A stretch of DNA of 64,000 bases, from IMG/VR virus record IMGVR_UViG_3300047462_000385, positions 62,001-126,000 of that record. One strand, given 5' to 3'. Every line of letters starts with the position of its first letter. Position 1 is the stretch's first letter. Below, in pieces: positions 3,717 to 34,484 of this stretch. The translations under genes were made by a program, and so were the position numbers. Below the pieces are notes generated by a model, which saw only the letters and a program-made list of their open reading frames with translations, did not search any database and had not been told where the DNA came from. The DNA comes from an uncultured virus (IMG/VR IMGVR_UViG_3300047462_000385) (Duplodnaviria; Heunggongvirae; Uroviricota; Caudoviricetes).

Positions 3717-3758
3717 CCTGCTACTTACAATACATAAACCTAGACAAAGGACAACTTA

Positions 3759-4019
3759 ATGTGTTATTTATGTATGATGGGAATGGATTTAATAGATCTT
3801 GACTCTGGTTCAATGCATCAGAACGTTCAAAAATGTCAAGATGACAATGATTCTTGGGCATTTGGAGAGTCATTTGATTTTGATTTTATTAAAGACTTGG
3901 AACCAAAGAAGAATTCTGAAGGTTGTGTTTGTAAAAAATGCAAAGAGCTTTACCCATATGCTGAGCCTAATCAAAAAGATGGCTCTATGATTTGTTATTC
4001 TTGTAGAAAATACGGCTAA
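3759..4019 (+). CDS. Small Cys-rich (zinc-binding) hypothetical protein
   Basis: CKKC...CYSC; upstream AGGA. Confidence 0.55.
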   Translation: MCYLCMMGMDLIDLDSGSMHQNVQKCQDDNDSWAFGESFDFDFIKDLEPKKNSEGCVCKKCKELYPYAEPNQKDGSMICYSCRKYG

Positions 4020-4031
4020 GACTGCCGGTAT

Positions 4032-4652
4032 ATGTCGTCAGAGGATGTTTCCATGACGATAAGTGATCCAAAATTTTTAATTAATGCTGGTGTTTATGAT
4101 AGGTGTGTTACCTTTGCCAAGGCTTCGGTCAATACGAGCGCTGACAAATATGCTAGACGCAATCAGTTTGATGTAGAAAAGATTGTCAAAGATATTCGAA
4201 ACGGCAAGATTGGTGAAGAGGGTGTCTACGAAAAGCTAGTAGCTACGCTTCCCAACTTATCTAAACCCGATCATAACATTTATGATAAGAGAGATAAGTC
4301 ATGGTCACCTGATTTGAGTGATACTGGCTCGTCTATTCGTGTTGCTGTCAAGTCCCAAGACATTGAATCTGCCCTCAGCTTCGGTGAGTCTTGGGTTTTT
4401 CAATTTGGTAATGGCGGAAAATATGATTGTGATACTGGAGTCTTTAAAGAAGTTGATCCAAATCACTATGTAGCGTTTGTTTCTTTGAATGTACCAAAAA
4501 GATTTGGTACAATCAGAGCTATTGTTAAAGTGCAATGGTTGCACGATAAGAAGCTTTTCAAAGAAATGAAGAAGCAGTCCTTGCGCGGAAACAAAGTCGC
4601 CGTATATTGCGACGACCTATTAAAGCATCCTAACGAATTATGGCAACTATAA
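4032..4652 (+). CDS. PD-(D/E)XK-like nuclease-fold protein
   Basis: GKIGE...PDL...AVKSQ arrangement; overlaps downstream MTase; true start may be the second Met. Confidence 0.5.
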   Translation: MSSEDVSMTISDPKFLINAGVYDRCVTFAKASVNTSADKYARRNQFDVEKIVKDIRNGKIGEEGVYEKLVATLPNLSKPDHNIYDKRDKSWSPDLSDTGSSIRVAVKSQDIESALSFGESWVFQFGNGGKYDCDTGVFKEVDPNHYVAFVSLNVPKRFGTIRAIVKVQWLHDKKLFKEMKKQSLRGNKVAVYCDDLLKHPNELWQL

Positions 4653-5458
4653 CTCCCTTCCGATATCCTGGTTCCAAAAATAAGCTACTGCCGATACTGA
4701 TGGAACATATGGATAAGATGATGGAAGGTCAGAGTTCTTTTGCAGATGTGTTTGTGGGTGGGGGTTCGGTACTTCTAGAGGTTGCTCGTAAGTATCCTAA
4801 GGTTCAATTGTATGCCAATGACAAAGATTATTGGATGTATTGCTTCTGGAAGGTCGTGGCTGACACAGATACCAATAAATTGGACCAGCTGCTGAAGCTC
4901 ATGGAGGCTGTCCCGACGCTAGAACTATTTTATAAATTACGTGAAGAGGATACACGGGACGAAATTAAGTGTGCCTACAAGGCTATCTTCTTCAATCGAA
5001 CCACCTTTTCAGGTATCTTTTATAGCGGACCCATCGGTGGTAAAGATCAAAAATCGAAATATACAGTTGACTGTCGCTATAACTACAAGAAACTAAAGGC
5101 AAAAATACTGCACTGCCACAAATTATTAGCAGGGCGCACTACGGTTGACAATCAAGATGTGGCGACTTATCCTGTGCTGACTCAGATGAGCATGCCAGTC
5201 TACTTAGACCCGCCATATTTCGTCAAAGGAAACATCCTTTATCATGAGACTATGAAGCCCCAGGAGCATGAAAATCTGGCAAAGATTCTAGAAAACAGAA
5301 CCAATTGGGTTCTTTCTTACGATGACTGTTATGAGACGCGGCAGATGTATAAGTCAAAGCAAGTTATTGACCTAGCCGCCCGCTATTGCATCAATGGTAA
5401 GAAAGAAAATTGGAAACATAAGAATGAACTAATCATTCTTTCTACTATGGGGAGCTAA
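4640..5458 (+). CDS. DNA adenine methyltransferase (Dam/D12 class)
   Basis: PFRYPGSK, DVFVGGGSV, YLDPPY, WVLSYD. Confidence 0.92.
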   Translation: MATITPFRYPGSKNKLLPILMEHMDKMMEGQSSFADVFVGGGSVLLEVARKYPKVQLYANDKDYWMYCFWKVVADTDTNKLDQLLKLMEAVPTLELFYKLREEDTRDEIKCAYKAIFFNRTTFSGIFYSGPIGGKDQKSKYTVDCRYNYKKLKAKILHCHKLLAGRTTVDNQDVATYPVLTQMSMPVYLDPPYFVKGNILYHETMKPQEHENLAKILENRTNWVLSYDDCYETRQMYKSKQVIDLAARYCINGKKENWKHKNELIILSTMGS

Positions 5459-5801: not shown

Positions 5802-6451
5802 ATTTAGCAGAATCAACTCAGTCAAATTTGGTAAAGCTTTGTGAGAATCCTAAAATTTCTCAGCTGTTAGAAGAGGTTAAGAGTTGGGGGAAGGCAGCAG
5901 TCTTCGGTGGTGCGGTTAGAGATTGGTCTTTTGGTAATCAACCTCGTGACATTGATGTAGTAGTTGACTGTCCATCTCAGGCTTTAGATGCTTTGATTAA
6001 ATACAAAGCCAAAAAGAATCGTTTTGGCGGCTACAAGTTAACTCTTGACAAGGTTGAATTTGATATTTGGAATCTGGATTCTACTTGGGCATTTGGAAAT
6101 GATCCCAAATTCTCTAAAAAATTAGAGACCATTCCACAGACAGTCTTCTTGAATGTAGATGCTGTTGCTTATTGCCTAGATGATAAAGCAATTTTGGACA
6201 AAGGCTTTACTAAAGCAATGGAATCAAGGGTTCTTGATATTGTTTACGAGCCCAATCCATACCCGTATCTTTGTGTTTCTAAATCTTTGGTTGCATTGAA
6301 GAAGTATGATATGAAAGCCTCTCCACGATTGAGGAGTTTTATTCGCGATCAAGAGGGCAGAGGATACACGGCGAAGTCTTTTAATGTGTATCAAAAGGTT
6401 CAATATGGTGACACTGTATTGGATTATACTGACTGCATGAATCGAGTGTAA
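5798..6451 (+). CDS. Nucleotidyltransferase, CCA/poly(A) polymerase head-like
   Basis: FGGAVRD...PRDIDVV motif. Confidence 0.75.
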   Translation: MNLAESTQSNLVKLCENPKISQLLEEVKSWGKAAVFGGAVRDWSFGNQPRDIDVVVDCPSQALDALIKYKAKKNRFGGYKLTLDKVEFDIWNLDSTWAFGNDPKFSKKLETIPQTVFLNVDAVAYCLDDKAILDKGFTKAMESRVLDIVYEPNPYPYLCVSKSLVALKKYDMKASPRLRSFIRDQEGRGYTAKSFNVYQKVQYGDTVLDYTDCMNRV

Positions 6452-6454
6452 TAA

Positions 6455-6826
6455 ATGTTGGATTTCATAATTGTTGTTGGTGCCATTTTTGGTCTAGCTT
6501 TCTTTATTAAAGAATCAGACGGTCCCTGGGGTTTGATGGCAAGAGCCCGTAATGAACTCTTTAAAAACCCTCATGTGGGTACATTCTTTTATAAATTACT
6601 GGATTGTTATTTCTGCCTTGGTTTCCATTGTGGTTGGTTCGTCTATTTATTGCACGAAAAAATATGGAGCCTCAATTTATTAATTTGCTGGGGTCTTGCT
6701 GGCGGCATGATCAGCCTTATAATGGACTTGATTTTGACGAGGCTCACGGCGCCACTGGCGTCAGAGCCCGAGCCTCCACTTGAGGCACCTCAACCACGTA
6801 AACGAACCAAGGTTAAAAATGGCTAA
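6455..6826 (+). CDS. Membrane protein, DUF1360-like
   Basis: Hydrophobic segments and LLDCYFCLGFH CxxC motif. Confidence 0.6.
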   Translation: MLDFIIVVGAIFGLAFFIKESDGPWGLMARARNELFKNPHVGTFFYKLLDCYFCLGFHCGWFVYLLHEKIWSLNLLICWGLAGGMISLIMDLILTRLTAPLASEPEPPLEAPQPRKRTKVKNG

Positions 6827-8303
6827 GCCTGTTATCAGAGAAGATGAACTTCAAGTTTCCATCAAAGACGTTTTTAAGCGTTATACTCTAAATTTTACTG
6901 ACATCATCAATAACAATAACAAGTATTACAACTTGGAGTTGATTGAATCCAATGATGGTAAGTACTATATCTATACGCAGTATGGGCGTGTTGGTGTTTC
7001 TGGCGCCAAAGAGTATCGTGTCTGCGAAGATAAGGCTGATGCCGAAAAAGAAGCCGAGAAGATTATCAAGTCCAAAACCAAAAAGGGCTATGTTGAAGTC
7101 AAGTTGGTTAAGGCTGACGTTGGCTCTGATATGGGTAAATCTAAAGTAGACTCTACCGTTTCTGTGGAAGCTCTCAAACGATTGGGCGCAACTGTCACTG
7201 AGAAAGACGAATCGGCTAGTAAACTTCATGCGCAAGTGCAGGACTTAGTTCGTACTTGGTTCGGCGTTACACAAGAGTTCGTTGAATTGAACCTTGATAC
7301 CAACAAGTGTCCATTGGGTCAATTGTCGTTAACCCAAATTGATTTCGCCAAACAAATTCTGGATGAAGCTCGTAAGCAAATCCACGTCAAGAAGCCTGAC
7401 GTCAAGGAGTTGAATAAGCTTACCAGCCAATACTACTCTAACATTCCTCACGTCCTCCCTCGTAAGATTGATGCTGACGTATTACGTTTGGACGACGACG
7501 ATAAGCTCAATAAAGCTTTCGACATTCTCGACGTCTTTGCTGACGCAAAGAACGTTCAAGCAGTTATCTCCAAGAAGAGCGCAGTAGATTCGCAGTATGC
7601 GACTTTGAAAGCTGATTTGGAGTACGTTGATCCTTCCGATCCGGTGTTCAAGTGGATTGATAACATGCTACATGGTACCCGTGCAAGCAATCATGGTGGC
7701 TTGGGCAAACTAAAGACTCATAAAGTTTTCCGTGTTGCTCGTCACGATGAAGACAAGCATTGGATGGAAGCTTCCGAGAAGATTGCTAAGGAATGTGGCA
7801 AATACACTCCTTCTGAAGTATATGCTAAGTGGGTAAAAGAACGTATTGACATTACCAAAGAAATGGATGCCCTTTATAAGAAGGCAAACGTTCTTCCTGC
7901 ATGGCACGGTACTCGTCGTGCAAACATGATTGGTATCACAACCAAAGGTCTTTTGATTCGTCCTTCTGGCGTTATCCATGCTGGGTCTGCATTTGGGGAT
8001 GGAATCTACTGGGCAACCAATTCTACCAAGAGTATGAATTATTGTGATGTTAGAGGTAGCTACTGGGCTCAAGGAACAAATAAAACAGCATATCTCTTTT
8101 TAGCAGATGTGGCTTTTGGAAATCAAAAGATCACGCAACAGTCTCACTTCTATACCAAGAAGAATATTAACCCAGCACATAGTGTTTGGGCTAAAACAGG
8201 CGGGTCACTATATAATGAAGAATTGATTACATATACGCCAAGTGGACCAGAACAACAACATTGTATCCGCTATATTATAGAATTTGAAACGCAAGCCAAA
8301 TGA
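6819..8303 (+). CDS. Poly(ADP-ribose) polymerase (WGR + regulatory + catalytic domains)
   Basis: NNNKYY...YGRVG (WGR); CPLGQLS...YYSNIPH (regulatory); WHGT, FGDGIYWA, KSMNY, NEELITY (H-Y-E). Confidence 0.92.
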   Translation: MAKPVIREDELQVSIKDVFKRYTLNFTDIINNNNKYYNLELIESNDGKYYIYTQYGRVGVSGAKEYRVCEDKADAEKEAEKIIKSKTKKGYVEVKLVKADVGSDMGKSKVDSTVSVEALKRLGATVTEKDESASKLHAQVQDLVRTWFGVTQEFVELNLDTNKCPLGQLSLTQIDFAKQILDEARKQIHVKKPDVKELNKLTSQYYSNIPHVLPRKIDADVLRLDDDDKLNKAFDILDVFADAKNVQAVISKKSAVDSQYATLKADLEYVDPSDPVFKWIDNMLHGTRASNHGGLGKLKTHKVFRVARHDEDKHWMEASEKIAKECGKYTPSEVYAKWVKERIDITKEMDALYKKANVLPAWHGTRRANMIGITTKGLLIRPSGVIHAGSAFGDGIYWATNSTKSMNYCDVRGSYWAQGTNKTAYLFLADVAFGNQKITQQSHFYTKKNINPAHSVWAKTGGSLYNEELITYTPSGPEQQHCIRYIIEFETQAK

Positions 8304-9151
8304 TTACGGTAGATATCGTATTTTCTTTGACATCTTGTTATTGGTGAGGTATTTTCGTAAATCCAAGTTAATATCTTAGTTGCATTGGTTCCCGAGTATC
8401 GCAAGGAGTAGTTGGGGTTCTTTCGTTTCTTACTTCGCTTTATCGTTTTGATATGTCCATCTTCGGCGATATCAAGCGTATTAGATAGATAATGACGCAA
8501 TTTTTGAACGAAATCTAAACAATTAGAAGAATAGGAAAACTCGATACCACATGATTGATTTTTTCTGCGGTCGTCAATTCTGACACACCCATCGGTGCTC
8601 AACAGTCCCGAAACGAAGAACTGATACATATCTTGTGGTAAGTTAGGAAAAATCAATTTACTACTCTTGGGACTTTGTAGATGAAACTTATTGATTAGTT
8701 CTTGGCATAAATGTTTGGAGTTGATGACAAGGTTATAAGCTTTGGCTTTCTTTCTCTTAGTAATAGGAAAGTTGGTCCCTAATAAATGTCTGGCACTTTC
8801 TAAGATATCCATATCATTGCTAACAATCGTTGTAGCATATTTGTATCTTTTAGGATTGTAATGAACGCATCCATCACCGAATATCAACCCTAACACATAG
8901 CATTGAAGCGCGTCTAACTCGTCAAAATAGTTTCGTTCTTCTAACATCGCTTTTCGTCTCTGCGTTTCATATGCTGTTAGAATTGGAACATCAAATTGGT
9001 CAAGAATGAATTTCAGTTGCTTCTGCTGCAACTTCGTTTCTTTTTGCAATTTTTTGAGTGATACGCCAGCTTTGTAGTCTGCCACAATTTTTTGTTTTTC
9101 TTGCTCGGTGATAATTCGTTTTGGTCGCGACATATAATGCTCCGTGATCAT
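8270..9151 (-). CDS. Free-standing LAGLIDADG homing endonuclease with N-terminal HTH
   Basis: Two motifs LGLIFGDG and SGLLSTDG; overlaps the PARP stop convergently. Confidence 0.85.
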   Translation of the reverse strand: MITEHYMSRPKRIITEQEKQKIVADYKAGVSLKKLQKETKLQQKQLKFILDQFDVPILTAYETQRRKAMLEERNYFDELDALQCYVLGLIFGDGCVHYNPKRYKYATTIVSNDMDILESARHLLGTNFPITKRKKAKAYNLVINSKHLCQELINKFHLQSPKSSKLIFPNLPQDMYQFFVSGLLSTDGCVRIDDRRKNQSCGIEFSYSSNCLDFVQKLRHYLSNTLDIAEDGHIKTIKRSKKRKNPNYSLRYSGTNATKILTWIYENTSPITRCQRKYDIYRNHLACVSNSII

Positions 9152-10729: not shown

Positions 10730-11085
10730 GTAATGTATCTTGGGAAGATCCTCCATATGGCGACAGAGACGCATATCAAAAATTATGCGAAACATCAACT
10801 CCATCAGATTTTTATTTCTTAGTTAAAGGCGAGAGTTCGTTTGTTGAATCTCCAGGTGATACTCCGGAAAATTTTGTTATGGTTTTCATAACACCAAAAT
10901 TGTATTTTCACAAAGAAAATAATATGTGGGATCAGTCTAACGATCTTTCTGAGTGTATGGAAAGTGTTTGGGACAATGATGGCGATAGATCTGTCGAAGA
11001 AATTAGGCAGGATATGTTGGCACGCGGGTTTGAAGAAAACGAAGCTTTTACAAAACTGATTAACAGGGAATACGATGGCTATTAA
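10726..11085 (+). CDS. Acidic hypothetical protein
   Basis: ORF overlapping both neighbours in the operon. Confidence 0.6.
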   Translation: MSNVSWEDPPYGDRDAYQKLCETSTPSDFYFLVKGESSFVESPGDTPENFVMVFITPKLYFHKENNMWDQSNDLSECMESVWDNDGDRSVEEIRQDMLARGFEENEAFTKLINREYDGY

Positions 11086-11518
11086 ATTTTATAAGACCAA
11101 TGAACCATATGGATTTCTGAATAACTTCAAGAAAGCCAGAATGTTTATAGTTGGTCCGGGTGGCGGGCGCTGGTGTGACAATGTTGAAACGGCTTATCAA
11201 GCTGCCAAAACTGTTATCCTAGAAGACGAAGAAATGATTTGGGCAGCTAAGACTCCTCGCGAAGCTCGTGATCTTGGACAGAAAATAAAACTTCGTGGTG
11301 ATTGGAACCATGTCAAAGATGATGTTATGTATCAGTGTGTTCTAGCTAAATTTCTACAACATGCAGACTTGCGCGCCGAACTAATGGCTACTGGCAATGA
11401 AGAGCTTATTGAAGATTCGCCCGTGGACTGGTACTGGGGATGTGGCAAAGATGGTACAGGCAAAAATATGCTTGGCAAGACTTTGATGAGGGTCCGTAAA
11501 GAATTACAGGGAGAGTAA
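11075..11518 (+). CDS. NADAR (YbiA/DUF1768) family hydrolase
   Basis: YGFLNNF, ETAYQAAK, AKFLQH, IEDSPVDWYWG, GKNMLGKTLM. Confidence 0.92.
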   Translation: MAIKFYKTNEPYGFLNNFKKARMFIVGPGGGRWCDNVETAYQAAKTVILEDEEMIWAAKTPREARDLGQKIKLRGDWNHVKDDVMYQCVLAKFLQHADLRAELMATGNEELIEDSPVDWYWGCGKDGTGKNMLGKTLMRVRKELQGE

Positions 11519-14126: not shown

Positions 14127-14771
14127 ATGAAAATAGTATGTATTTCCGACACACATGAGCAAGAAGAGAAAATTCTTTTGCCGCCAGGCGATGTGCTTGT
14201 TCATGCTGGTGACATTACCTATCGTGGTGATATTGGCAAGCTATCCAAATTTTTGCGCTGGATGAGTGCCCAAAACTTCCAAAGTAAGATTATCATCTCT
14301 GGTAATCATGATTGGTGTTTCCAAAACAATAGCCGAAATATTGCGCTCAGATTGTGCGAAGAAAATGAAATCACCTATCTTCAAGACAGTGGTGTCAAGA
14401 TTGGTGGCATTAACTTTTGGGGAAGCCCTTGGCAGCCTTGGTTTCATAACTGGGCTTTCAATGCCATGAGGGGCAAGGATATTGCTCATCATTGGGCAAA
14501 GATTCCCGAGGATACCAATGTCCTGATTACACATGGTCCAGTTATGAATGTATTGGATGCAGCTCCACGTGGTGTTGCTGACGTAGAGCACGTGGGCTGT
14601 GAAGAGTTAGCAAAGCGTATTACAGAGTTGCCTAATCTAAAGGCTCATATCTGTGGACATATTCACTATGGATATGGCAAAATGCAACTTGCTAATGTGC
14701 AATTTGTTAATGCATCATGCTGTACCGAAGCATATGCTCCAACTAACCCTCCGATTACAATTGAGGTGTAA
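14127..14771 (+). CDS. Metallophosphoesterase (MPPED-like)
   Basis: SDTH, HAGD, GNHD, THGP, CGHIH. Confidence 0.9.
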   Translation: MKIVCISDTHEQEEKILLPPGDVLVHAGDITYRGDIGKLSKFLRWMSAQNFQSKIIISGNHDWCFQNNSRNIALRLCEENEITYLQDSGVKIGGINFWGSPWQPWFHNWAFNAMRGKDIAHHWAKIPEDTNVLITHGPVMNVLDAAPRGVADVEHVGCEELAKRITELPNLKAHICGHIHYGYGKMQLANVQFVNASCCTEAYAPTNPPITIEV

Positions 14772-15382: not shown

Positions 15383-15756
15383 TTGGAGTGAAAATTAGAA
15401 GACGCTCACAATTTCCTAAATGTATTCGACACTTCAAAGAAGTTAGGGGAATTTGTATTGGTGAATGTGTAGAAAAATGTGAAATTAATAAGCATCATGC
15501 GGCACATGCACATTGCAATCATAATGATTATCCTGGTTGGATATGTTTGCGCCGTAAAACGCAATTAAGAGAAAAATTTACACTGCTACATGAGGTTGCA
15601 CATATTATTAGCTGTACTTCTAATAATATTCCATATCATGGTAAAAAATGGAGAGAAGTTGTTGTGGCAATTGGTGGCACATACCAATCATATAAGTCTT
15701 ACTGCAAACGATACATATACAAAGATTATTCACCAAGAAAACGAACTCCTAAATGA
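15379..15756 (+). CDS. SprT-like zinc metallopeptidase
   Basis: LLHEVAH...HGKKW. Confidence 0.6.
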   Translation: MIGVKIRRRSQFPKCIRHFKEVRGICIGECVEKCEINKHHAAHAHCNHNDYPGWICLRRKTQLREKFTLLHEVAHIISCTSNNIPYHGKKWREVVVAIGGTYQSYKSYCKRYIYKDYSPRKRTPK

Positions 15757-16223
15757 TAATAGCATTTACTGGACATCGACCTGACAAACTCGGCGGATAT
15801 AAGATTCCCAATCCAACTTATATTCGTGTTTGTAAGAAAATTGATGCCAAGCTCCGTGAACTAAAACCTGATAGAGTCATCTCTGGAATGGCTTTAGGTA
15901 TAGATCAATGGGCAGCTTTCATTGCTATTAAATTAAATATTCCCTTTACCGCAGCCGTGCCTTTTGAAAACCAAGATAATGCTTGGCCATTTCATTCACA
16001 ATACATTTACAGAATGTTATTGAGATTCGCAATTGAAAAAGTTGTTGTTTCTCCTGGCGGATATTCTGCGGCAAAAATGCAGATTCGCAATCAATGGATG
16101 GTGGACCATTGCGATATCTTAATCGCAATTTGGGACGGAACAGCAGGTGGTACTGCTAATTGTATCAATTATGCGAAATCTATTGGTAAGCAAATCATCT
16201 TTATCGACCCTAATGGAGAATAA
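15753..16223 (+). CDS. SLOG/YspA (DUF1273) family protein
   Basis: AFTGHRP, SGMALGID, RNQWMVD, WDG..GGT. Confidence 0.85.
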   Translation: MIIAFTGHRPDKLGGYKIPNPTYIRVCKKIDAKLRELKPDRVISGMALGIDQWAAFIAIKLNIPFTAAVPFENQDNAWPFHSQYIYRMLLRFAIEKVVVSPGGYSAAKMQIRNQWMVDHCDILIAIWDGTAGGTANCINYAKSIGKQIIFIDPNGE

Positions 16224-17456
16224 ATGAGTGTCTATAAGCCTAATGAATTCCGTGTTTACTCTAAGCAAGATGTGGATAAATTAAGGGGTTCCTTTCAAAT
16301 CGAGTATACAATAGCAAAATTAGGTTGTGAAAGATTGTGGACTCTGTTTAATGTAGATCCATATGTAAAAGCTTTGGGAGCTTTAACTGGTAACCAGGCA
16401 GTTCAACAAGTAAAAGCTGGGCTCCATGCGATTTATCTTTCGGGCTGGCAAGTAGCGGCAGATGCTAATCTAGCTGGTCAAATGTATCCTGACCAATCTT
16501 TGTATCCTGCTAATAGCGTTCCAAGTGTTGTCAAAAAGATTAACTCAGCACTTCTTAGGGCTGATCAGATAGAGAGCGCGGAGGGATGTCCTCAAAGATA
16601 TTGGCTTGCTCCTATCGTAGCTGATGCCGAGGCAGGCTTTGGTGGACCTCTTAATTCTTTTGAATTAATGAAGGGTATGATTGAGGCGGGAGCTGCTGGC
16701 GTACATTTCGAGGATCAATTATCTTCTGAAAAGAAGTGCGGTCATATGGGCGGCAAGGTATTAGTCCCCATGAATCAATTTATAAAATCATTAGTCGCTG
16801 CTCGCCTAGCTGCCGATATCTGCGGTACCAGAACTATTATCATTGCCCGTACAGATGCCGATTCAGCCAAATTAATTACTACAGATGCTGACGAAAGAGA
16901 TCGTCCCTTCATTGTATCTTCTGAGCGTACCGACGAAGGTTTTTTCAAAATTAAGAATGGTGTAGAGTATTGTATTGCCCGAGGCTTGGCTTATGCGCCT
17001 TATGCGGATATGTTGTGGATGGAAACTTCTACGCCCGATATTGGTCAAGCTAAAGAGTTTGCAGATGAAATTCATAAAAATTTCCCAAACATGCCCTTGG
17101 CTTATAATTGCTCTCCTTCTTTCAATTGGAAAAAGAATTTATCAGAATCTCAAATTGCTTCTTTCCAAGATGAACTAGGAGCATTAGGATATAAATTCCA
17201 ATTCGTCACTTTGGCAGGATTTCATGCTCTAAATCATTCAATGTTTACTTTAGCGCAGGCATATAAGACAAGTGGCATGAGTGCCTACTCATCTTTGCAA
17301 GAAGCTGAATTCGAAAATGTCGCAGCGGGATATACAGCAGTAAAACACCAACGCGAGGTTGGTGCAAATTATTTTGACCAAATTTCCACTGTAATTTCTT
17401 CAGGCAGCTCTTCTACTTTAGCACTTCCTGACAGTACTGAAAAAGATCAGTTTTAA
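16224..17456 (+). CDS. aceA: Isocitrate lyase
   Basis: [18 protein letters not shown], catalytic EDQ...[28 protein letters not shown]. Confidence 0.98.
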
Positions 17457-17494
17457 TATCATCAACGTGCCTATCAATACTTCTGTATGATGGC

Positions 17495-17972
17495 ATGAAA
17501 AATACAAAAATATGTGGCGTCTGCAAAGAGGAAAAATCTGTTTCTGATTTTTTATTGTTTTAAGGATAATAGAAATAAGGGCGGTAAAGGTATTTATACT
17601 AAATATCTTTGTAAAAAATGCGACAAGAAAAATGGATTGAAGCAAAAAGAAAAGTCTCGTCGCAGGAAGAGACAGTTTTTATGGGAATATAAAAAATCTC
17701 ATCCGTGTGTAGACTGCGGTGAAAGTAATCCAATTTGTCTACAATTCGATCACGTGAGTGATATTAAGTTTATGAATGTAGGAATTTTGGCGAATGGTGG
17801 ACATTCTCTTCTACTACTTAAAAAAGAAATTGAAAAGTGCGTAATAAGGTGTGCCAGTTGTCATATGAAGAAGACTGCGAAAGACCAAAATTGGTATGAA
17901 GCAGAGCTTCGAATTGAAGGCTGTTCCATTGATGAATGGAATCAAAAATTTTCTAAAGCAGTTCTAAAATGA
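17495..17972 (+). pseudogene. HNH-type endonuclease with +1 frameshift in T6 run (or sequencing indel)
   Basis: MKNTKICGVCKEEK from ATG 17495 joins CVDCG...FDH...CASCH if one T of 17548-17553 is removed. Confidence 0.7.
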
Positions 17973-19540
17973 GAATAGAGATAGTTAATTTAGATAAATA
18001 TAAAGACACCATATTAACAGATGAAGCAATCTTTTTTGTGGTTGATTTGGTAAATAGGTTTGCGCCAAGAGTCAATGAGATATTATTTTCTCGCCAGGCA
18101 AGACAAGCCCTGTTGGATAGACATGATTTGCTCCCATACTTCTTACCAAATACCGCACACATCCGTGGTTCGGATTGGACTGTAGCTTCATTGCCTGCTG
18201 ACTTATTAGATAGGCGAGTAGAGATTACGGGACCAACCGAACGCAAAATGATCATCAATGCCCTTAATTCGGGCGCTAATGTGTTCATGGCTGACCTAGA
18301 AGACTCTAACTCTCCTACATGGGAAAACATGATGCAAGGTCAGGTTAACTTGATGGATGCCGTCCGTCGCACCATAACCTTCACATCAGACGCAGGTAAA
18401 GACTACAAACTCAATGAAAAAACTGCTGTCTTGATGGTCAGACCGCGTGGTTGGCATTTAGTCGAAAAGAACTTTATGTTAGACAATATGCCCATTCCAG
18501 CAGCTCTATTGGATTTTGGTTTATACTTTTTCCACAATGTTAAAGAATTGATGGAAAGAGGAACTGCTCCTTATTTTTACCTTCCTAAAATGGAAAGTTA
18601 TTTGGAAGCTCGTCTATGGAATGATATTTTTGTTTATTCTCAAAAGAAATTCAAAATTCCAAAAGGCACAATTAAAGCAACTTGTTTAATTGAAAACATC
18701 TATGCCGCATTTGAAATGAATGAATTTCTATGGGAATTAAAAGATCATTCAGCTGGCTTGAATTGCGGGCGTTGGGATTATCTTTTCAGCTTTATTAAAA
18801 AGTTTGCGAATAAACCGGAATTTATTCTACCCGATCGCGCTCAATTGACAATGGACAAAGGATTTCTTAATGCGTATGTCCAGCTCCTAATTCAGACTTG
18901 CCATAAGAGAAATGTCCATGCTATGGGCGGTATGGCTGCACAGATTCCAATTAAGGACGATCCAAAAGCCAATGAAGCTGCTATGGCTAAAGTAAAGGCT
19001 GACAAGCTACGCGAGGTCAAAGCTGGTCATGATGGAACGTGGGTAGCCCATCCTGGATTGGTTCCAGTAGCTCGTCAAATTTTTGACGAATACATGCCTC
19101 ACTCTAATCAAATTGGCAACATTCACTATTCAACAGTGACTGAACAAGATTTACTGGCTGTACCAGAAGGGACTTGTACTGAAGCTGGTTTACGTTATAA
19201 CATTCGCGTCGGCATCCGTTATTTGGCAGCATGGTTGTCCGGACAAGGCTGTGTCCCAATTTATAACTTAATGGAGGACGCTGCAACGGCAGAAATATCC
19301 CGCTCCCAGGTTTGGCAGTGGTTGCGACATAAGGTGGCAATAGTAACTGCCGATGAAGATAAACAAACACTAACTAAAGATTGGTTTCTAGAAATGGTTG
19401 ATGAGGAAATGATAACTCTTCAAAAAGAAACTAAGGATTTTGATAATGGATATAAAGCGCGTGATCTGTTTGTTTCATTATCTACAGCTGAACGATTCGA
19501 AGAATTTTTAACAACGGCAGCTTACCATTTCTTAAAATAA
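17969..19540 (+). CDS. aceB: Malate synthase A
   Basis: DRRVEITGP, MADLED, VRPRGWHL, LNCGRWDY, AMGGMAAQIP, GHDGTWVAHP, MEDAATAEISR. Confidence 0.98.
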   Translation: MRIEIVNLDKYKDTILTDEAIFFVVDLVNRFAPRVNEILFSRQARQALLDRHDLLPYFLPNTAHIRGSDWTVASLPADLLDRRVEITGPTERKMIINALNSGANVFMADLEDSNSPTWENMMQGQVNLMDAVRRTITFTSDAGKDYKLNEKTAVLMVRPRGWHLVEKNFMLDNMPIPAALLDFGLYFFHNVKELMERGTAPYFYLPKMESYLEARLWNDIFVYSQKKFKIPKGTIKATCLIENIYAAFEMNEFLWELKDHSAGLNCGRWDYLFSFIKKFANKPEFILPDRAQLTMDKGFLNAYVQLLIQTCHKRNVHAMGGMAAQIPIKDDPKANEAAMAKVKADKLREVKAGHDGTWVAHPGLVPVARQIFDEYMPHSNQIGNIHYSTVTEQDLLAVPEGTCTEAGLRYNIRVGIRYLAAWLSGQGCVPIYNLMEDAATAEISRSQVWQWLRHKVAIVTADEDKQTLTKDWFLEMVDEEMITLQKETKDFDNGYKARDLFVSLSTAERFEEFLTTAAYHFLK

Positions 19541-19546
19541 TCACGC

Positions 19547-19574
19547 TTGACACTCTAACTATAGTGGTTATATT
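19547..19574 (+). promoter_or_regulatory. sigma70-type promoter for tRNA-Leu(CAA)
   Basis: TTGACA-16nt-TATATT. Confidence 0.65.
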
Positions 19575-19596
19575 AATATTTTGGTATAGTCTTACT

Positions 19597-19683
19597 GGTC
19601 GTGTGGCGGAATAGGCAGACGCGGCAGTCTCAAAAACTGTTGGGAGCAATCCCGTGTGGGTTCGATTCCCACCATGACCACCA
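19597..19683 (+). tRNA. tRNA-Leu(CAA)
   Basis: Cloverleaf; GCAGT-CTCAAAA-ACTGT; long variable arm; encoded CCA. Confidence 0.95.
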
Positions 19684-19704
19684 TTAATTTTAAAATTGTC
19701 AGTC

Positions 19705-19733
19705 TTGACAATCATGTGCTGCCGACTTATCTT
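19705..19733 (+). promoter_or_regulatory. sigma70-type promoter
   Basis: TTGACA-17nt-TATCTT. Confidence 0.6.
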
Positions 19734-19788
19734 AGTGGGTGACATTCTCCGAGAAATCTGGGAATAAGACGATATATAAAGGCATCAC

Positions 19789-19865
19789 GCTCAGGTGACG
19801 GAATTGGCATACGTACTACTCTCAGAAAGTAGGTTTTATGGGTTCGACTCCCATCTTGAGCACCA
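19789..19865 (+). tRNA. tRNA-Leu(CAG), short variable loop
   Basis: CTACT-CTCAGAA-AGTAG; V-loop only GTTTT; A73, CCA. Confidence 0.9.
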
Positions 19866-19869
19866 AAAT

Positions 19870-19955
19870 GCTATCATGGCGGAACGGCAGACGCGGCAGG
19901 CTTAGAACCTGTTGGGAGTAATCCCGTGGGGGTTCAAGTCCCTCTGATAGCACCA
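19870..19955 (+). tRNA. tRNA-Leu(TAG)
   Basis: GCAGG-CTTAGAA-CCTGT; variable arm; CCA. Confidence 0.95.
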
Positions 19956-19960
19956 CTTAT

Positions 19961-20046
19961 GCTACTGTGGTGGAACGGCAGACACACAACGCTAAGAACG
20001 TTGCGCTCGTAAGGGCATGGGGGTTCAAGTCCCTCCAGTAGTACCA
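19961..20046 (+). tRNA. tRNA-Leu(AAG)
   Basis: CAACG-CTAAGAA-CGTTG; variable arm; A73, CCA. Confidence 0.9.
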
Positions 20047-20054
20047 GATTCTAA

Positions 20055-20544
20055 ATGAGTAAGAACAATCAAAAATATTCCAAAGAACTATTAGAGCCAA
20101 TTGTTAAAAAAGTGTTTCTCTTACTAGCAGGTAATGAGAGAGCTTGGTTTAAAGATAAGTGGTGGCAGCAGTTCTCATTTGAAATCCAGATTTAAACTTT
20201 ATAACATAGATACCTCACATTTTACAGGTTTAGCTACTAACCAAGGCAAACCTCATAAAGGTGGATTTCCAAAATTATCGGCTGAAACTATTCTTGTTTT
20301 TGATAGACTGGGCGGTCGCAGAGATCATGGTTGGAAAATAAAACGAGCACTAGTAGAGTCTGGCGTTCCAGAACAGTGTGAATGTGGTTTGAAATCAGAA
20401 TGGAACGGTAAGAAATTAGTTCTTCAAGTTGATCATAAAAATGGTAATGGGCTTGATAATCGCAGAGAAAATCTTAGATTCCTTTGCCCTAACTGTCATT
20501 CACAAACAGATAATTTTTGTTCTAAAAATATGAAGGCTAAATAA
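20055..20544 (+). pseudogene. HNH endonuclease with disrupted 5' end
   Basis: LQVDHKNGNGLDNRRENLRFLCPNCH; upstream MSKNNQKYSKELLEPIVK separated by a frameshift in A6 (20106-20111) and an in-frame TAG (20125-20127). Confidence 0.75.
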
Positions 20545-20733
20545 ATGTTATTCGGTGAAGAATGTGATTGTCATTGTCATGACGGCGACTTTGATGTTGC
20601 TCACATCATGCCTTGCTGCTATGAGTGCCCTACTTGTCACACAAATATTGATGTCGTGAATTATGAAACTCACGAGAAGAGATGTGGTGAAGAATATAAA
20701 GAATTACTCAGCAGCGTACTTGGAAAGAAGTGA
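20545..20733 (+). CDS. Small Cys/His-rich protein
   Basis: CDCHCH...HIMPCC..CPTC. Confidence 0.55.
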   Translation: MLFGEECDCHCHDGDFDVAHIMPCCYECPTCHTNIDVVNYETHEKRCGEEYKELLSSVLGKK

Positions 20734-21111
20734 ATTGATTTCATCCAAAGCAGCTTTCTTGGATTTCTTATCTTTACCGCCGACATCAATCTTTGGATAC
20801 TTAGCTTTTACTTTTCTTGCTACTAAAGCTTGAAGACCCTTCAAAGAACCTTTGTACCACTCTGGAACAGAGCTGTATTGATGAACACGAGACAAAGCAT
20901 TACGTGCTTGATCGGCATTATTAATTGGGAAATGGTCTTTCTTGTCCTTGGCTTGTTCAGCTGGAACACAAACGTTGCCTCTATTACGAACTTCAGCCTT
21001 AGGATCTAGCTTCTTTTTCTCTTTCTTTGCAGCAGTTTTCTGCAAAGACTCCGAAGATAGCTCATCAAATTGAGTGGCTAAAGTTAATAATTGCTCGATT
21101 GTGTAGGACAT
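20704..21111 (-). CDS. Basic hypothetical protein (DUF6582-like segment)
   Basis: HFPINNADQARNALSRVHQY motif. Confidence 0.65.
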   Translation of the reverse strand: MSYTIEQLLTLATQFDELSSESLQKTAAKKEKKKLDPKAEVRNRGNVCVPAEQAKDKKDHFPINNADQARNALSRVHQYSSVPEWYKGSLKGLQALVARKVKAKYPKIDVGGKDKKSKKAALDEINSLLSKYAAE

Positions 21112-21178
21112 TAAAAACCCCTTGAACTAGGATATATAGAAATATACTAATAATTAAGCAAGAATATTACCAGATTAT

Positions 21179-21255
21179 GGTGTCGTGAGGGAGCTGGTGA
21201 CCCCGGTTGGCTGTGAACCAATCTTCGACGGGATCGAAACCCGTACGACACCCCA
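21179..21255 (+). tRNA. tRNA-His(GTG)
   Basis: G-1:C73; GTTGG-CTGTGAA-CCAAT; atypical G8 and A54; CCA. Confidence 0.85.
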
Positions 21256-21266
21256 AGTAAGTTTAT

Positions 21267-21343
21267 GGTGTGCGTTTCCATTTGGTAATGGTCGGGTGTT
21301 GTGACCACTCGATAAGCGGGTTCGAATCCCGTCGCTCACCCCA
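21267..21343 (+). tRNA. tRNA-His(GTG), second divergent copy
   Basis: G-1:C73; GGGTG-TTGTGAC-CACTC; atypical D-arm; CCA. Confidence 0.8.
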
Positions 21344-21352
21344 GTAAGTTAT

Positions 21353-21427
21353 GCTCCGTTCATCTAGTGGCTAGGATACTTGGTTTTCACCCAGGAAAAA
21401 GGGGATCGATACCCCTACGGAGTACCA
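21353..21427 (+). tRNA. tRNA-Glu(TTC)
   Basis: CTTGG-TTTTCAC-CCAGG; CCA. Confidence 0.9.
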
Positions 21428-21429
21428 AC

Positions 21430-21504
21430 GGTCTGTTCGTCTAGCGGTTAGGACCCAGCCCTTTCAAGGCTGTCACACGAGTTCGATTCTCGTACAGATC
21501 ACCA
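21430..21504 (+). tRNA. tRNA-Glu(TTC)
   Basis: CAGCC-CTTTCAA-GGCTG; CCA. Confidence 0.95.
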
Positions 21505-21702
21505 ATGAAAAAAGTATTAATTTTGTTAGCAGTTGCTTTTGTTATCGGATGTGCTTATAAAGTAGACATGAGTTCGGTTCCTAAGGGTGCAAAATTCTGT
21601 GGAAATGATGGTGAGTGTTCTCGTGGTGAGTATTGTGGATTTTACGGAGTTGATTCTCCTGCGGTTTGCAAACCAAAGCCACAAGAAATTAGATGGCATT
21701 AA
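21505..21702 (+). CDS. Small Cys-rich lipoprotein
   Basis: Lipobox VIG-C; CGNDGECSRGEYC...C. Confidence 0.7.
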   Translation: MKKVLILLAVAFVIGCAYKVDMSSVPKGAKFCGNDGECSRGEYCGFYGVDSPAVCKPKPQEIRWH

Positions 21703-21733
21703 TCGGCTAATAAGCTGATATAATAGATACGAT

Positions 21734-21808
21734 GGTCCCTTCGTCTAGCGGCTAGGACGGCAGATTCTCAATCTGTTAACACGGGTTCGATTCCCGTAGG
21801 GATCACCA
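21734..21808 (+). tRNA. tRNA-Glu(CTC)
   Basis: GCAGA-TTCTCAA-TCTGT; CCA. Confidence 0.95.
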
Positions 21809-21828
21809 AGAAACTTTGGTTTCTTTAT

Positions 21829-21905
21829 GTGCTCATAGCTCAACTGGACAGAGCGATCGGCTTCTACCCGATAGGTTGAGGGTTCAAATCCTTCTGGGCA
21901 TGCCA
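21829..21905 (+). tRNA. tRNA-Arg(TCT)
   Basis: ATCGG-CTTCTAC-CCGAT; CCA. Confidence 0.95.
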
Positions 21906-21922
21906 AGTAAGTTTTGTTTTAT

Positions 21923-21997
21923 GTCTCTGTAGTCTAATGGAAAGGCAGCTGCCTTCTAAGCAGTTTTATGTTGGTTCGAGTCCAATCAGAGATACCA
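21923..21997 (+). tRNA. tRNA-Arg(TCT)
   Basis: GCTGC-CTTCTAA-GCAGT; CCA. Confidence 0.9.
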
Positions 21998-22000
21998 AAT

Positions 22001-22086
22001 ACGCCCGTCGTAGCGGATCTACGTAAGAGTCTACGTAAGAGTCTACGAAACTCTTTATCTCGGTTCAACTCCGAGCGGGCGTGCCA
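22001..22086 (+). tRNA. tRNA-Arg(ACG)-like gene with internal 12-nt tandem duplication (possible pseudo-tRNA)
   Basis: ACGCCCG/CGGGCGT acceptor; AAGAGT-CTACGAA-ACTCTT; T-arm; TCTACGTAAGAG x2.5 at 22018-22047. Confidence 0.75.
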
Positions 22087-22127
22087 GAATTTGATACGAA
22101 ATGTATCAATAGTTTCGTATCCTTTGT

Positions 22128-22565
22128 ATGAAGATTTGTACGAAGTGTAAAACAGATTATCCTACCCCATTAGAAGATCATTTCAATAAAAGAGCTGGCT
22201 CGAAAGACGGACTTCAGCATCGTTGCAAGAAATGTATAGCTGTTCTTCACAAAGAACATTACGAGTTACGTACAGATTATTACCTTGCGAAAGCAAAGAA
22301 ACGCAATTATAAAATTAGAGTAAGTAATTTGCAGTTCATGATTGATTACTTGAAAGAAAATCCATGTATTGATTGTGGAGAAACAGATCCGATAGTTTTA
22401 GAATTTGACCATCGTAGCGACAAGACTTATAATGTGAGCGAGATGCGAACGCTCAGCTTGGAGACAATAAAACAAGAAATTCAAAAATGTGACGTAAGGT
22501 GTGCCAACTGTCACAAAAAGAAAACAGCAAAGCAATTCAACTACTATAAAGGCATACGTTTGTAA
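22128..22565 (+). CDS. HNH-type endonuclease
   Basis: CTKC...CKKC...CIDCGETDPIVLEFDH...CANCH. Confidence 0.85.
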   Translation: MKICTKCKTDYPTPLEDHFNKRAGSKDGLQHRCKKCIAVLHKEHYELRTDYYLAKAKKRNYKIRVSNLQFMIDYLKENPCIDCGETDPIVLEFDHRSDKTYNVSEMRTLSLETIKQEIQKCDVRCANCHKKKTAKQFNYYKGIRL

Positions 22566-22569
22566 TTAT

Positions 22570-22648
<79 letters not shown>

Positions 22649-22812
22649 GGGCAGTCGTCGCTGTCATGCCGTTTCTTTTAAGGAAAGACGGGGCATGGAT
22701 CCCATTCGCAAGATGAGCGAATGAAGCATTTACATGCAGGAACCAGATATTCGGAATTTCATCATCGAGAAACGTTCGAGTCAAAGACCGCTCTTATTTT
22801 GAGATTGATCCC
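22649..22812 (+). ncRNA. Candidate structured non-coding RNA between tRNA genes
   Basis: Closing stem GGGCAGTC/GATTGATCCC; internal hairpins 22665-22697, 22703-22723, 22726-22737; no credible ORF. Confidence 0.35.
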
Positions 22813-22830
22813 TTGACATAAGAGATGTAT

Positions 22831-22905
22831 GTCCCTATAGTGAAAAGGATATCACGATCGTCTTCGAAACGATCAGTACAGGTTCGATTCCTGTTGGGGA
22901 TACCA
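22831..22905 (+). tRNA. tRNA-Arg(TCG)
   Basis: ATCGT-CTTCGAA-ACGAT; CCA. Confidence 0.92.
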
Positions 22906-23397: not shown

Positions 23398-24600
23398 ATG
23401 AAACTATTTGAAGATTTAGAGGCGCGTGGGCTGGTGAAACAGGCAACCAACACGGAAAAGATCCGTGAACTTCTCAATGAAAAGAAAGTTACTTTTTACA
23501 TTGGATTTGATCCCACTGCAAACAGTTTGCATGTAGGGCACTTATTACAGATGATTACTGCTAAACGCTTGGCGAATGCTGGTCACATACCAATCATGTT
23601 AATTGGTGGGGCTACCGCACAGATTGGTGATCCGAGTGGAAAGAGTAGCATGCGCCCCATGTTAGAAGAACATGTGGTAGAAGCGAACATCAAAAGCATT
23701 ACTCCGCAGATTAAAAAGATTGTGGGCGTAGATGACTGGCAGATCATCAACAACAAAAGATTCTTCCAGCACTTTACTTTCCTGAGCTTCATTCGAGAGT
23801 TTGGTCCGTTATTCTCAGTAAACAACATGCTGCGAGCCGATTGCTTCAAAAGCAGATTGGAGACTGGACTTTCATTTTTAGAATTCAATTACATGCTCAT
23901 GCAGGCGGTTGACTTCTTCCGTCTATTCGTTTGGAGAGATTGTATCCTTCAAATCGGTGGCGATGATCAGTGGTCCAACATTTTGGCTGGTATTGACTTG
24001 ATTCATAAAAAAGAAGGCAAGGAATCTTTCGGACTGACAATCCCCTTGCTAACTACTTCGGATGGAACCAAGATGGGGAAAACCGAAAAGGGAGCAGTGT
24101 GGCTATCGGAAGAAGGGCAGACGAGCATCTTCGACTTTTTTCAGTTCTGGCGTAACATTCCAGACGCAGAGGTTATGAAGTGCTTTAAGCAGCTGACCTT
24201 CTTGTCGCTGCAGGAAATTGCTACGATACCCTTTACTACTGTAGAGGAAATCAATGCGGCAAAGAAAAGATTGGCTTGCGAATTAACTACCATCGTACAT
24301 GGTAAAGATGCAACCGATATCACGCTTGAGGTGGTAGAGTCTCTCTTTGAAAAGAAAGATCCGTCTATCATGGAAGCCGCGCCTATCGATGACAATACTA
24401 ATGTTTTAGACTTGATTGTTAAATGTGAATTTGCTAAGTCTCGTACTGATGCAAGAAATCTAATTAACAATAAAGGTATTACTATTAATACTCAAGTTTT
24501 AGATAATCCAACACTTATTATTTCTAAATCACAATTTGGCAAAGAGATTATAGTGAAAAAGGGTAAAAAGAGTTTTAAGAGATTTATGATTGAGGAATAA
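23398..24600 (+). CDS. tyrS: Tyrosyl-tRNA synthetase
   Basis: YIGFDPTA.SLHVGH, IGDPSGK, EFNY..MQAVD, QIGGDDQW.NI, KMGKT, S4-like tail. Confidence 0.97.
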   Translation: MKLFEDLEARGLVKQATNTEKIRELLNEKKVTFYIGFDPTANSLHVGHLLQMITAKRLANAGHIPIMLIGGATAQIGDPSGKSSMRPMLEEHVVEANIKSITPQIKKIVGVDDWQIINNKRFFQHFTFLSFIREFGPLFSVNNMLRADCFKSRLETGLSFLEFNYMLMQAVDFFRLFVWRDCILQIGGDDQWSNILAGIDLIHKKEGKESFGLTIPLLTTSDGTKMGKTEKGAVWLSEEGQTSIFDFFQFWRNIPDAEVMKCFKQLTFLSLQEIATIPFTTVEEINAAKKRLACELTTIVHGKDATDITLEVVESLFEKKDPSIMEAAPIDDNTNVLDLIVKCEFAKSRTDARNLINNKGITINTQVLDNPTLIISKSQFGKEIIVKKGKKSFKRFMIEE

Positions 24601-32550: not shown

Positions 32551-32597
32551 GATTGCAACCCTAGCGATATATAGCATGGGTTAGAATTGATAGAATA

Positions 32598-33752: not shown

Positions 33753-33753
33753 C

Positions 33754-34116
33754 ATGTTGGAACATATTATTGAAATAGTTTTCGGAGTCGGCGCTGCCAT
33801 CTTAATGTGGGATGTTTTCATCTCAGACTCTCTTTCGGATAGATGGAAATCTTTTCGCAAACGCAAGAGTGACATTTCTGATTCTGATAAGATTGCCAGA
33901 GTCAAACTCACATCAGATAGCGCTAAGGACATTGAAAAGTTCATAACCGACAATGCCCACAACCTATCTGATGAGATGGTCCAAAAGTTAGTAGAGCGTA
34001 TTGAGTTTCTTCATGCTGACAAAGCAATCTTTGAAGATAATTTGAAGACTCGTATCGATGCCATTCCAAATATGGTGGCAGCTCAGGAAGAAGCCCCTAA
34101 GAAGGCAAAAAGATAA
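33754..34116 (+). CDS. Membrane-anchored hypothetical protein
   Basis: N-terminal hydrophobic helix. Confidence 0.65.
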   Translation: MLEHIIEIVFGVGAAILMWDVFISDSLSDRWKSFRKRKSDISDSDKIARVKLTSDSAKDIEKFITDNAHNLSDEMVQKLVERIEFLHADKAIFEDNLKTRIDAIPNMVAAQEEAPKKAKR

Positions 34117-34134
34117 TAAAGTTGCATTAATAAG

Positions 34135-34476: not shown

Positions 34477-34484
34477 GGAATGAT

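Follow-up and report, generated by a model that had tools for sequence, protein, structure and literature searches.

We analysed a stretch of 64,000 nucleotides (the window) from an uncultured virus assigned to the Caudoviricetes, corresponding to bases 62001-126000 of the 130,362-base IMG/VR record IMGVR_UViG_3300047462_000385 (record G000). A preliminary description of the sequence had recognised at positions 16224-19540 a complete glyoxylate shunt, isocitrate lyase (ICL, gene aceA) and malate synthase (MS, gene aceB), split by an HNH gene. These limits are exact, with aceA starting at 16224 and the aceB stop at 19540, and the following features lie between them.

16224-17456, + strand: aceA, isocitrate lyase, 410 aa (NF011645, Pfam ICL)
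17457-17968, + strand: inserted segment of 512 bp with the HNH gene, missing from relatives
17495-17972, + strand: HNH endonuclease gene, frameshifted (PHROGs); the open reading frame (ORF) is listed as 17514-17972
17969-19540, + strand: aceB, malate synthase A, 523 aa (TIGR01344; MS_N, MS_TIM-barrel, MS_C)

Both enzymes had been described as full length with catalytic motifs intact, and this was confirmed by equivalog models and signature motifs. AceA matched the Pfam ICL model (2.2e-102), the NCBIfam equivalog NF011645 'isocitrate lyase' (709.3 bits, cut-off 562) and TIGR01346 (554.6 bits, cut-off 275.9). Methylisocitrate lyase was considered and rejected, as those models scored far under their cut-off (88 vs 354). 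The closest solved structure is PDB 6lrp (622 bits across residues 10-410), and the E. coli structure 1igw scored 518 bits. Residues 170-174 form the motif KKCGH, aligned with the same motif in 6lrp, and we take K-K-C-G-H to be the catalytic-loop signature of isocitrate lyases (PROSITE). Conservation was scored over columns at least 97% conserved among 78 bacterial ICLs or 50 bacterial malate synthases of the A type (MS-A), drawn from the loci of database bacterial homologues. AceA retains 167 of 169 such columns, departing from them at E8 and M290, the latter common to sequences P0008, P0013 and P0023. A GGAG Shine-Dalgarno sequence is found 9 nt upstream of the aceA start, which itself lies one base past the stop of an upstream SLOG gene.

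AceB contains the Pfam domains MS_N, MS_TIM-barrel (3.3e-109) and MS_C and scored 768.3 bits with TIGR01344 'malate synthase A', for which the cut-off is 594.5; assignment as malate synthase G was rejected because those models scored far under cut-off. Among solved malate synthases, PDB 3cux scored 662 bits across almost the full protein and the E. coli enzyme 3cuz 546 bits. The motifs RPRGWH (158), GLNCGRWDY (263) and EDAATAE (436) all aligned with 3cux, presumably supplying the catalytic Arg, the signature G-L-N-x-G-x-W-D-Y and the catalytic Asp, respectively. The protein retains 126 of the 127 conserved MS-A columns, and its N-terminus aligned with that of AceB from the related locus L005, on the 252-kb IMG/VR record G002. 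Neither aceA nor aceB matched a PHROG family at E<=1e-5.

Between the window and L005, nonsynonymous differences (pN 0.129 for aceA, 0.171 for aceB) are far less frequent than synonymous ones (pS 0.723 and 0.748, with synonymous sites saturated). Since pN is far lower than pS, this comparison of sequences indicates strong purifying selection on both genes.

The carrier genome

Record G000 is linear and by CheckV 30% complete, and among its scanned ORFs we found no structural gene. It does carry phage-type genes, including more than 10 HNH/GIY-YIG endonucleases, an NAD-dependent ligase, polynucleotide kinase, RNA ligases, NAMPT, Thg1-like enzymes, tyrosyl-tRNA synthetase (TyrRS) and 13 tRNAs, and by Pfam and PHROGs such genes stand on both flanks of the aceA-aceB pair, in agreement with the tight packing against phage-type genes seen earlier. 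Confirming that the contig is viral had been proposed as a check, and the answer came from a second IMG/VR record, G001 (204,190 bases, 47% complete), which is 99.999% identical to positions 15832-130362 of G000 across 114,531 bases and extends 89.6 kb past the overlap. In this extension (74 ORFs scanned with PHROGs) we identified a major head protein (phrog_2522, 1.2e-76), a portal protein (1.6e-51) and the large terminase TerL (phrog_675, 7.2e-55), together with a DNA polymerase (3e-246), prohead proteases and a UvsX-like recombinase. The aceA-aceB pair is thus located on a viral genome whose major head protein, portal and TerL genes are found on the overlapping record. Because the CheckV completeness of both records implies that size, we estimate the genome at ~430 kb. 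The isolated phage whose head protein comes closest to that of G001 is Bacillus phage G (497.5 kb), with 53.7% identity. A search of five related records with the Pfam model Terminase_6C gave a single sub-threshold match.

Logan contigs of 20.8 and 21.8 kb cover positions 15700-20100 with 0 differences and 0 gaps. They come from three runs, two of which (X2 and X3) seem to represent the same data set, and the runs are possibly the source samples; the contigs therefore represent the same join made by another assembler and not independent occurrences. Sequencing runs labelled moss metagenome contain the window phage. The G+C content at third codon positions (GC3) is 0.307 for aceA and 0.347 for aceB, within the 0.28-0.50 of 19 other sampled window ORFs, so that the AT-rich style ascribed to both genes and their surroundings is a shared one; overall the phage has a G+C content of ~39%.

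The HNH gene between aceA and aceB

The ORF between the two shunt genes matched the PHROG HNH families phrog_2255 (2.5e-22), phrog_3106 (1.3e-15) and phrog_4234 (6.5e-8), with no Pfam HNH model at E<=0.01, and its translation shows a DH...N...CxxCH core. By PHROGs the ORF is thus an HNH endonuclease gene; it is, however, not intact. From its natural start (ATG 17495), a 22-codon frame (MKNTKICGVCKEEKSVSDF...) halts at a stop at 17561-17563, and the remainder, from GTG 17514 to TGA 17972, is in a different frame, the break being at a T6 run at 17548-17553. As a result the N-terminal zinc-ribbon half, with the first CxxC, and the nuclease core are read in different frames. The paralogue at 22128-22565 is intact and shows the same CxxC...CxxC arrangement at its N-terminus within a single frame. 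The frameshifted sequence is the same in two IMG/VR records and in the Logan contigs (0 differences).

In loci L005 and L006 the aceA stop and the aceB start overlap as TAATG and no HNH gene is present (aceA 6001-7233, aceB 7233-8750). The gene is therefore polymorphic for presence and absence at one site, being present in G000 and G001 and absent from L005 and L006. In a DNA alignment of this region made with MAFFT the 3' end of aceA was out of place, and we took from it only the L005 TAATG overlap and the aceB starts. As weak evidence, one contig (depth 3) from run X7, a groundwater relative ~90% identical to the window, joins position 17362 to 17955. Because aceA and aceB overlap without it in the closest relatives, we regard the HNH segment as a late, lineage-specific insertion. 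It is probably a free-standing selfish endonuclease gene that inserted exactly at the aceA/aceB junction, damaged neither gene and has since been frameshifted, so that the insertion is already decaying. The preliminary description had taken the HNH gene as a sign of long residence, an argument that falls away: being late and frameshifted, it carries no evidence on how long the shunt genes have resided in the phage.

Free-standing HNH homing endonucleases are familiar from T-even phages, for example mobE between nrdA and nrdB. The window gene resembles these in occupying the gap between two conserved paired genes, in being present or absent among relatives and in having scattered paralogues. 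It differs from them in being frameshifted and in lacking a Pfam HNH match at the threshold given above, and is a homing candidate only.

Genes flanking the aceA-aceB block

The neighbouring genes and sites are as follows.

14127-14771, + strand: calcineurin-like metallophosphoesterase (Pfam Metallophos, 3.5e-13)
15753-16223, + strand: SLOG/YpsA-family gene (Pfam YpsA, 4.4e-14), whose stop abuts the aceA start
19547-19574, + strand: promoter-like site TTGACA-16 nt-TATATT (11/12 consensus match), between aceB and the tRNA array
19597-22905, + strand: 13 tRNA genes (4 Leu, 2 His, 3 Glu, 4 Arg; ARAGORN), the downstream boundary of the aceA-aceB block
20134-20544 and 22128-22565: HNH genes among the tRNAs (Pfam, PHROGs)
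31894-32577: further HNH paralogue (PHROGs)

Both aceA and aceB are co-oriented with their neighbours. The order Metallophos, two small ORFs, SLOG, aceA is kept in L005 (G002) and in L024, a locus on record G004. By tblastn the SLOG gene upstream of aceA is 70% identical in L005/L006 and 57% in L023/L024, and the YpsA domain was confirmed in the SLOG genes of L005 and L024. Promoter-like sites are not in excess in the region (12 found vs 16.9 expected), and a promoter/terminator scan gave no excess over shuffles; for this reason we treat the site at 19547-19574 as a consensus match only. In the tRNA array the 4 Leu tRNAs have four different anticodons, and several tRNAs occur as tandem duplicates.

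Distribution among related phages

A search of IMG/VR for the pair, as had been suggested, gave 32 loci with an ICL relative and only 3 with a close MS relative. MS lies inside the fetched flanks of 9 of the 32 loci, and this is a lower bound because at least 5 loci end just upstream of aceA. Three loci (G001, L005 and L006) have the order aceA-aceB, and six (L008, L009, L011, L013, L015 and L022) the order aceB-aceA. The G002 pair is 81% (AceA) and 71% (AceB) identical to that of the window. Compared by head protein, G001 is 94% identical to G002, which has both genes, 87% to G004, which has aceA only, and ~90% to G003, which has an aceA of a second clade (see below). In G004 the Metallophos-SLOG-aceA synteny is the same and aceB is absent. 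When five large related records were searched with the Pfam models, MS matched in two, and the other three had ICL without an MS match. No malyl-CoA lyase or other partner enzyme was found within ~4-5 kb of aceA in the ICL-only loci L016, L024 and L031 (the last on record G005).

A large protein database yielded 22 AceA proteins 77-85% identical to that of the window, on contigs of up to 476,653 bp. All have 409-411 aa except one of 590 aa, which covers 71% of the query. The next-best matches are from Myxococcota (73-74%). AceB matches on the same large contigs are 65-71% identical, followed by Polyangiaceae at 64-66%. AceA, AceB and the phage-type TyrRS occur together on contigs of 476,653, 427,500 and 136,793 bp. 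Over the phage group as a whole, ICL is the widespread enzyme and MS an addition confined to some members.

Phylogeny

A phylogeny of AceA and AceB had also been called for. In a FastTree tree of AceA (126 rows) the clade that includes the window has 23 rows (support 100), viral and metagenome rows only. Nine further rows, all viral and ICL-only, make up a second clade (support 99), and the aceB-aceA loci form a third, joined by one contig from a metagenome-assembled genome (MAG) labelled Ectothiorhodospiraceae (L090). In a quick IQ-TREE analysis of 60 rows, with the posterior mean site frequency (PMSF) approximation, the window clade was recovered with all 10 of its sampled rows at an SH-aLRT (likelihood-ratio branch test) support of 100. 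The group in which it was nested had weak support (87) and comprised Myxococcota, Caulobacteraceae and a single Vicinamibacteria row. No named cellular sequence falls in the window AceA clade. Constraining the window clade and the second viral clade to group together gave a tree 16.5 log-likelihood units above that of the free quick search (p-AU, approximately unbiased test, 0.806), and on these trees ICL may have had one origin in the phage-G-like group.

For AceB (tree of 87 rows) the window belongs to a clade of 12 rows (support 99) within a Myxococcota-rich half. One member of this clade, P0124, is encoded on a 46,369-bp contig shared with a phage-type TyrRS. The nearest named cellular relatives of both proteins are thus Myxococcota. 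Since the bacterial rows were chosen as best matches to the window AceA and the trees are unrooted, we treat a Myxococcota-like donor as a lead and not as a result. Myxococcota have a G+C content of ~65-70%; with the phage at ~39%, we did not use this affinity as a host signal.

Five aceB-aceA loci (L008, L009, L013, L015 and L022) form a separate clade in both the AceA and the AceB tree, from which it follows that the pair probably entered phages at least twice. As for L011/L012, both L011 proteins group with those of Brevibacillus, and the locus is probably cellular or prophage-flank DNA. The MAG contig L090 has an aceB-aceA pair of the phage type and may belong to a phage, having been binned wrongly. 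In G005 (L031; G005 86460-88097) a second-clade AceA is accompanied by a T4 gp23-type head protein (PF07068, 213 bits), with no phage-G-type head protein; G003 has an AceA near-identical in type to that of G005, but a phage-G-type head protein. ICL has therefore moved between unrelated phage lineages. For the window phage, the phage-range GC3, the purifying selection, the conservation across diverged phages and the all-viral/metagenome AceA clade together argue, at the level of sequence, that the pair is long resident.

Other genes of the phage and its relatives

Positions 23398-24600 of the window encode a phage TyrRS. Its relatives, as listed, comprise 119 metagenome proteins of 59-81% identity, many on contigs of 380-511 kb, and this distribution suggests a large, widespread family of phage-G-sized megaphages sharing the TyrRS. 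A nucleotide-sugar and glycan island at 48565-63916 comprises GDP-mannose 4,6-dehydratase, two further epimerase/dehydratases, a sugar C-methyltransferase, a DegT aminotransferase, a PglD-like acetyltransferase, GT11 and an 801-aa methyltransferase-GT2-GT6 fusion. Genes of RNA repair and tRNA maintenance (window 32598-45849; G000 56526-57410 and 127450-128235) include an RlaP-like nucleotidyltransferase, polynucleotide kinase, at least three RNA ligases and two Thg1-like tRNA-His guanylyltransferases.

Translation genes are found on G000 (35483-36358, 54552-55004 and 59598-60701) and on G001 (L049:14092-15339, L050:3689-4228 and L051:8387-8923). They comprise elongation factor EF-Ts, PTH2 peptidyl-tRNA hydrolase, trigger factor, peptide deformylase, a translation initiation factor and a single-chain protein resembling phenylalanyl-tRNA synthetase (class II core plus FDX-ACB domain). 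A group of genes with an NAD/ADP-ribose theme (G000 46799-49323, 19366-20355 and 50053-50967; window 11075-11518) encodes NAMPT, a NadR-like cytidylyltransferase/NUDIX protein, two ADP-ribosylglycohydrolases and a NADAR domain protein. On G002 a PARP-like protein with WGR, PARP_reg and PARP catalytic domains directly follows aceB (L005:8876-10276). At 103149-105349 of G003 the major head protein gene is split, with residues 1-98 and 73-337 encoded ~1.1 kb apart and stops inside, which could reflect an intron or an endonuclease insertion in the capsid gene. Finally, a 606-aa ORF at 3500-5320 of G000 contains a RoxA-like cytochrome c domain (PF21419, 1.7e-16).

Discussion

Taken as a whole, these results are best explained by aceA and aceB being a phage-encoded auxiliary metabolic pair carried by a phage-G-like huge phage of ~430 kb, a reading to which we assign a probability of about 0.8. 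We infer expression of the two genes, activity of their products and any physiological pay-off. In the proposed scheme, which follows what is established for the pathway, phage isocitrate lyase would compete with the host isocitrate dehydrogenase for isocitrate and convert it to succinate and glyoxylate, and malate synthase A would condense glyoxylate with acetyl-CoA to give malate. Both CO2-releasing reactions in the tricarboxylic acid cycle would thereby be bypassed, and carbon from acetate, lipid or storage polymers would be kept as C4 acids that could feed gluconeogenesis and the synthesis of aspartate, amino acids and nucleotides. Toxic glyoxylate would be removed by malate synthase at the same time. 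Since most of these phages have ICL without MS, ICL is probably the decisive step; MS may perhaps be needed in hosts whose own enzyme is missing or repressed, or against a build-up of glyoxylate. The physiological role put forward in the preliminary description, the redirection of host acetyl-CoA into C4 precursors, is plausible; the link it drew between the shunt and the sugar island is speculation.

Several observations weigh against this reading. Most of the related phages have ICL alone, so the pair is not essential to the role of ICL there. In the window, no clear Shine-Dalgarno sequence precedes aceB, and the gene begins within an ATGA overlap with the stop of the frameshifted HNH ORF, so that it may be translated more weakly than in the relatives, where it is coupled to aceA. 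In AceB, Asn243 replaces a Thr that is at least 97% conserved, beside a conserved LIE, and does so in the window only (1 of 16 sequences compared). Furthermore, neither aceK, another flux regulator nor another central-carbon enzyme accompanies the pair among the ORFs scanned on ~220 kb, about half of the genome, short ORFs lying outside the scan.

Some of these points would be accounted for if the pair were decaying in the window phage, aceB having been uncoupled by the HNH gene and weakened by T243N, so that only ICL is effective and the genome is drifting towards the ICL-only state. The insertion between genes that overlap in relatives, the weak ribosome-binding region of aceB, the unique Asn243 and the existence of a syntenic relative (G004) with SLOG-aceA and no aceB would all fit such a course. 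We nevertheless consider it improbable, given an aceB ORF that is intact over its 523 codons, keeps all but one of its conserved columns, scores 768 bits on the equivalog model and aligns at its N-terminus with L005 AceB; the ATGA overlap with the HNH ORF could, moreover, still couple translation. A greater, though still minor, share of probability goes to the idea that the enzymes are active and the benefit is relief of redox or other stress, or a lower iron demand, instead of a gain of carbon. Isocitrate would then be diverted around two NAD(P)H-yielding decarboxylations, lowering respiratory load and oxidative stress, with ICL as the key enzyme and MS serving only to detoxify glyoxylate. 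The glyoxylate shunt has an established role in bacterial stress tolerance, ICL alone is common (three of the five large related records have no MS match), and 23 of the 32 IMG/VR ICL loci have no MS in the fetched flank. These counts are softened by the incompleteness of some ICL-only records (59-97%, CheckV) and by the at least 5 loci that end just upstream of aceA, and the sequence is compatible with the redox and the carbon-conserving role alike, which could also operate side by side.

The preliminary description had named chimeric assembly or cellular origin as what would overturn it. That aceA-aceB is cellular DNA misassembled onto a phage, or that the contig is a misclassified cellular sequence or prophage flank, would find some encouragement in IMG/VR ICL loci that look cellular, such as L011, and in the lack of a structural gene among the ORFs scanned on G000 itself. 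It is nonetheless very unlikely. The overlapping record G001 carries capsid, portal and terminase genes, the join is identical in two IMG/VR records and in the Logan contigs of three runs (perhaps the source samples), which show neither a coverage step nor breakpoints at the flanks of 16224-19540, and it is kept, with the same upstream synteny, in the diverged G002 and L006. The GC3 of both genes matches that of the phage, and the AceA clade is free of named cellular sequences.

Auxiliary shunt genes on a viral genome have precedents. A 2025 preprint surveying 7,295 huge phage genomes describes 98 ICL and 22 MS genes in 98 huge phages, places ICL and MS genes "one gene away" from each other in two genomes, and reports MS-carrying huge phages only from marine, soil and plant-related habitats (10.1101/2025.02.27.640493). 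The window resembles the cases presented there, in that the carrier is a huge phage, one gene (HNH) separates aceA from aceB and runs labelled moss metagenome contain it. Unlike the present analysis, that report gives, in its account of these genes, no ICL/MS phylogeny and no explanation of the intervening gene, nor does that account include activity data. Earlier, aceAB was described in ocean viromes (Hurwitz et al. 2013; PMC4053976), and an aceBA operon in the complete 179-kb marine viral genome TARA_ERS478052_N000008, which is also described as carrying polysaccharide and nucleotide-sugar genes (Gmd, WcaG and others; Nishimura et al. 2017; PMC5332604). That genome and the window share adjacent shunt genes on a large viral genome together with sugar genes (~48.5-64 kb in the window). 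As described, however, it has aceB then aceA and T4-like structural genes, whereas the window has aceA then aceB on a phage-G-like genome. We infer that the IMG/VR aceB-aceA loci L008, L009, L013, L015 and L022 are of the TARA_ERS478052_N000008 type.

The E. coli aceBAK operon encodes the same two enzymes in an order reversed relative to the window. The window does not hold an operon of that type, with aceB upstream of aceA and aceK or an equivalent, and the ORFs scanned on the ~220 kb include neither aceK (isocitrate dehydrogenase kinase/phosphatase) nor a regulator of the IclR type. In a collection of 50,697 phage records, the only real phage genome with an ICL is Phage C48C1 (OQ984149.1, Kyanoviridae, 156 kb), where the gene is annotated 'hypothetical protein' (54.7% identity across 98% of the query); no complete phage genome in the collection has an MS. 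Other ICL/MS matches there were rejected, being Salmonella whole-genome shotgun records, short unannotated fragments and Acinetobacter 'phage' contigs at 25-30% identity. Phage C48C1 is like the window in having ICL; it differs in having no MS, and its ICL shares a long branch with further viral ICLs at a distance from the window clade. The preliminary view that a complete shunt is rare in phages thus holds as regards the phage collection and PHROG families, but the pair itself had already been reported.

Since both the phenomenon and the 'one gene apart' arrangement are in print, the discovery is incremental. What is new here is the late, frameshifted HNH insertion, the phage-G-like carrier, the contrast between a common ICL and an accessory MS, Myxococcota as the nearest cellular relatives, and a possible single origin of ICL. 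A wider scenario can be drawn from these elements. ICL would be old and mostly vertically inherited in phage-G-like megaphages (~430-510 kb), having been acquired once from a Myxococcota-like donor, and MS would be a later add-on in soil- and plant-associated lineages. Rewiring of the isocitrate branch point would then be a lineage-defining infection strategy and not a sporadic moron, with the aceA/aceB junction serving as an HNH homing site. We offer this scenario tentatively, at somewhat short of even odds.

We found no published biochemical test of a phage ICL or MS in the literature searched, and the intact pair, with its HNH-free relatives, is a reasonable candidate for the first. Central-carbon enzymes carried by phages show which host bottlenecks limit virus production, and a complete phage glyoxylate shunt would let infected cells make C4 and sugar precursors from acetyl-CoA while host regulation is shut down.

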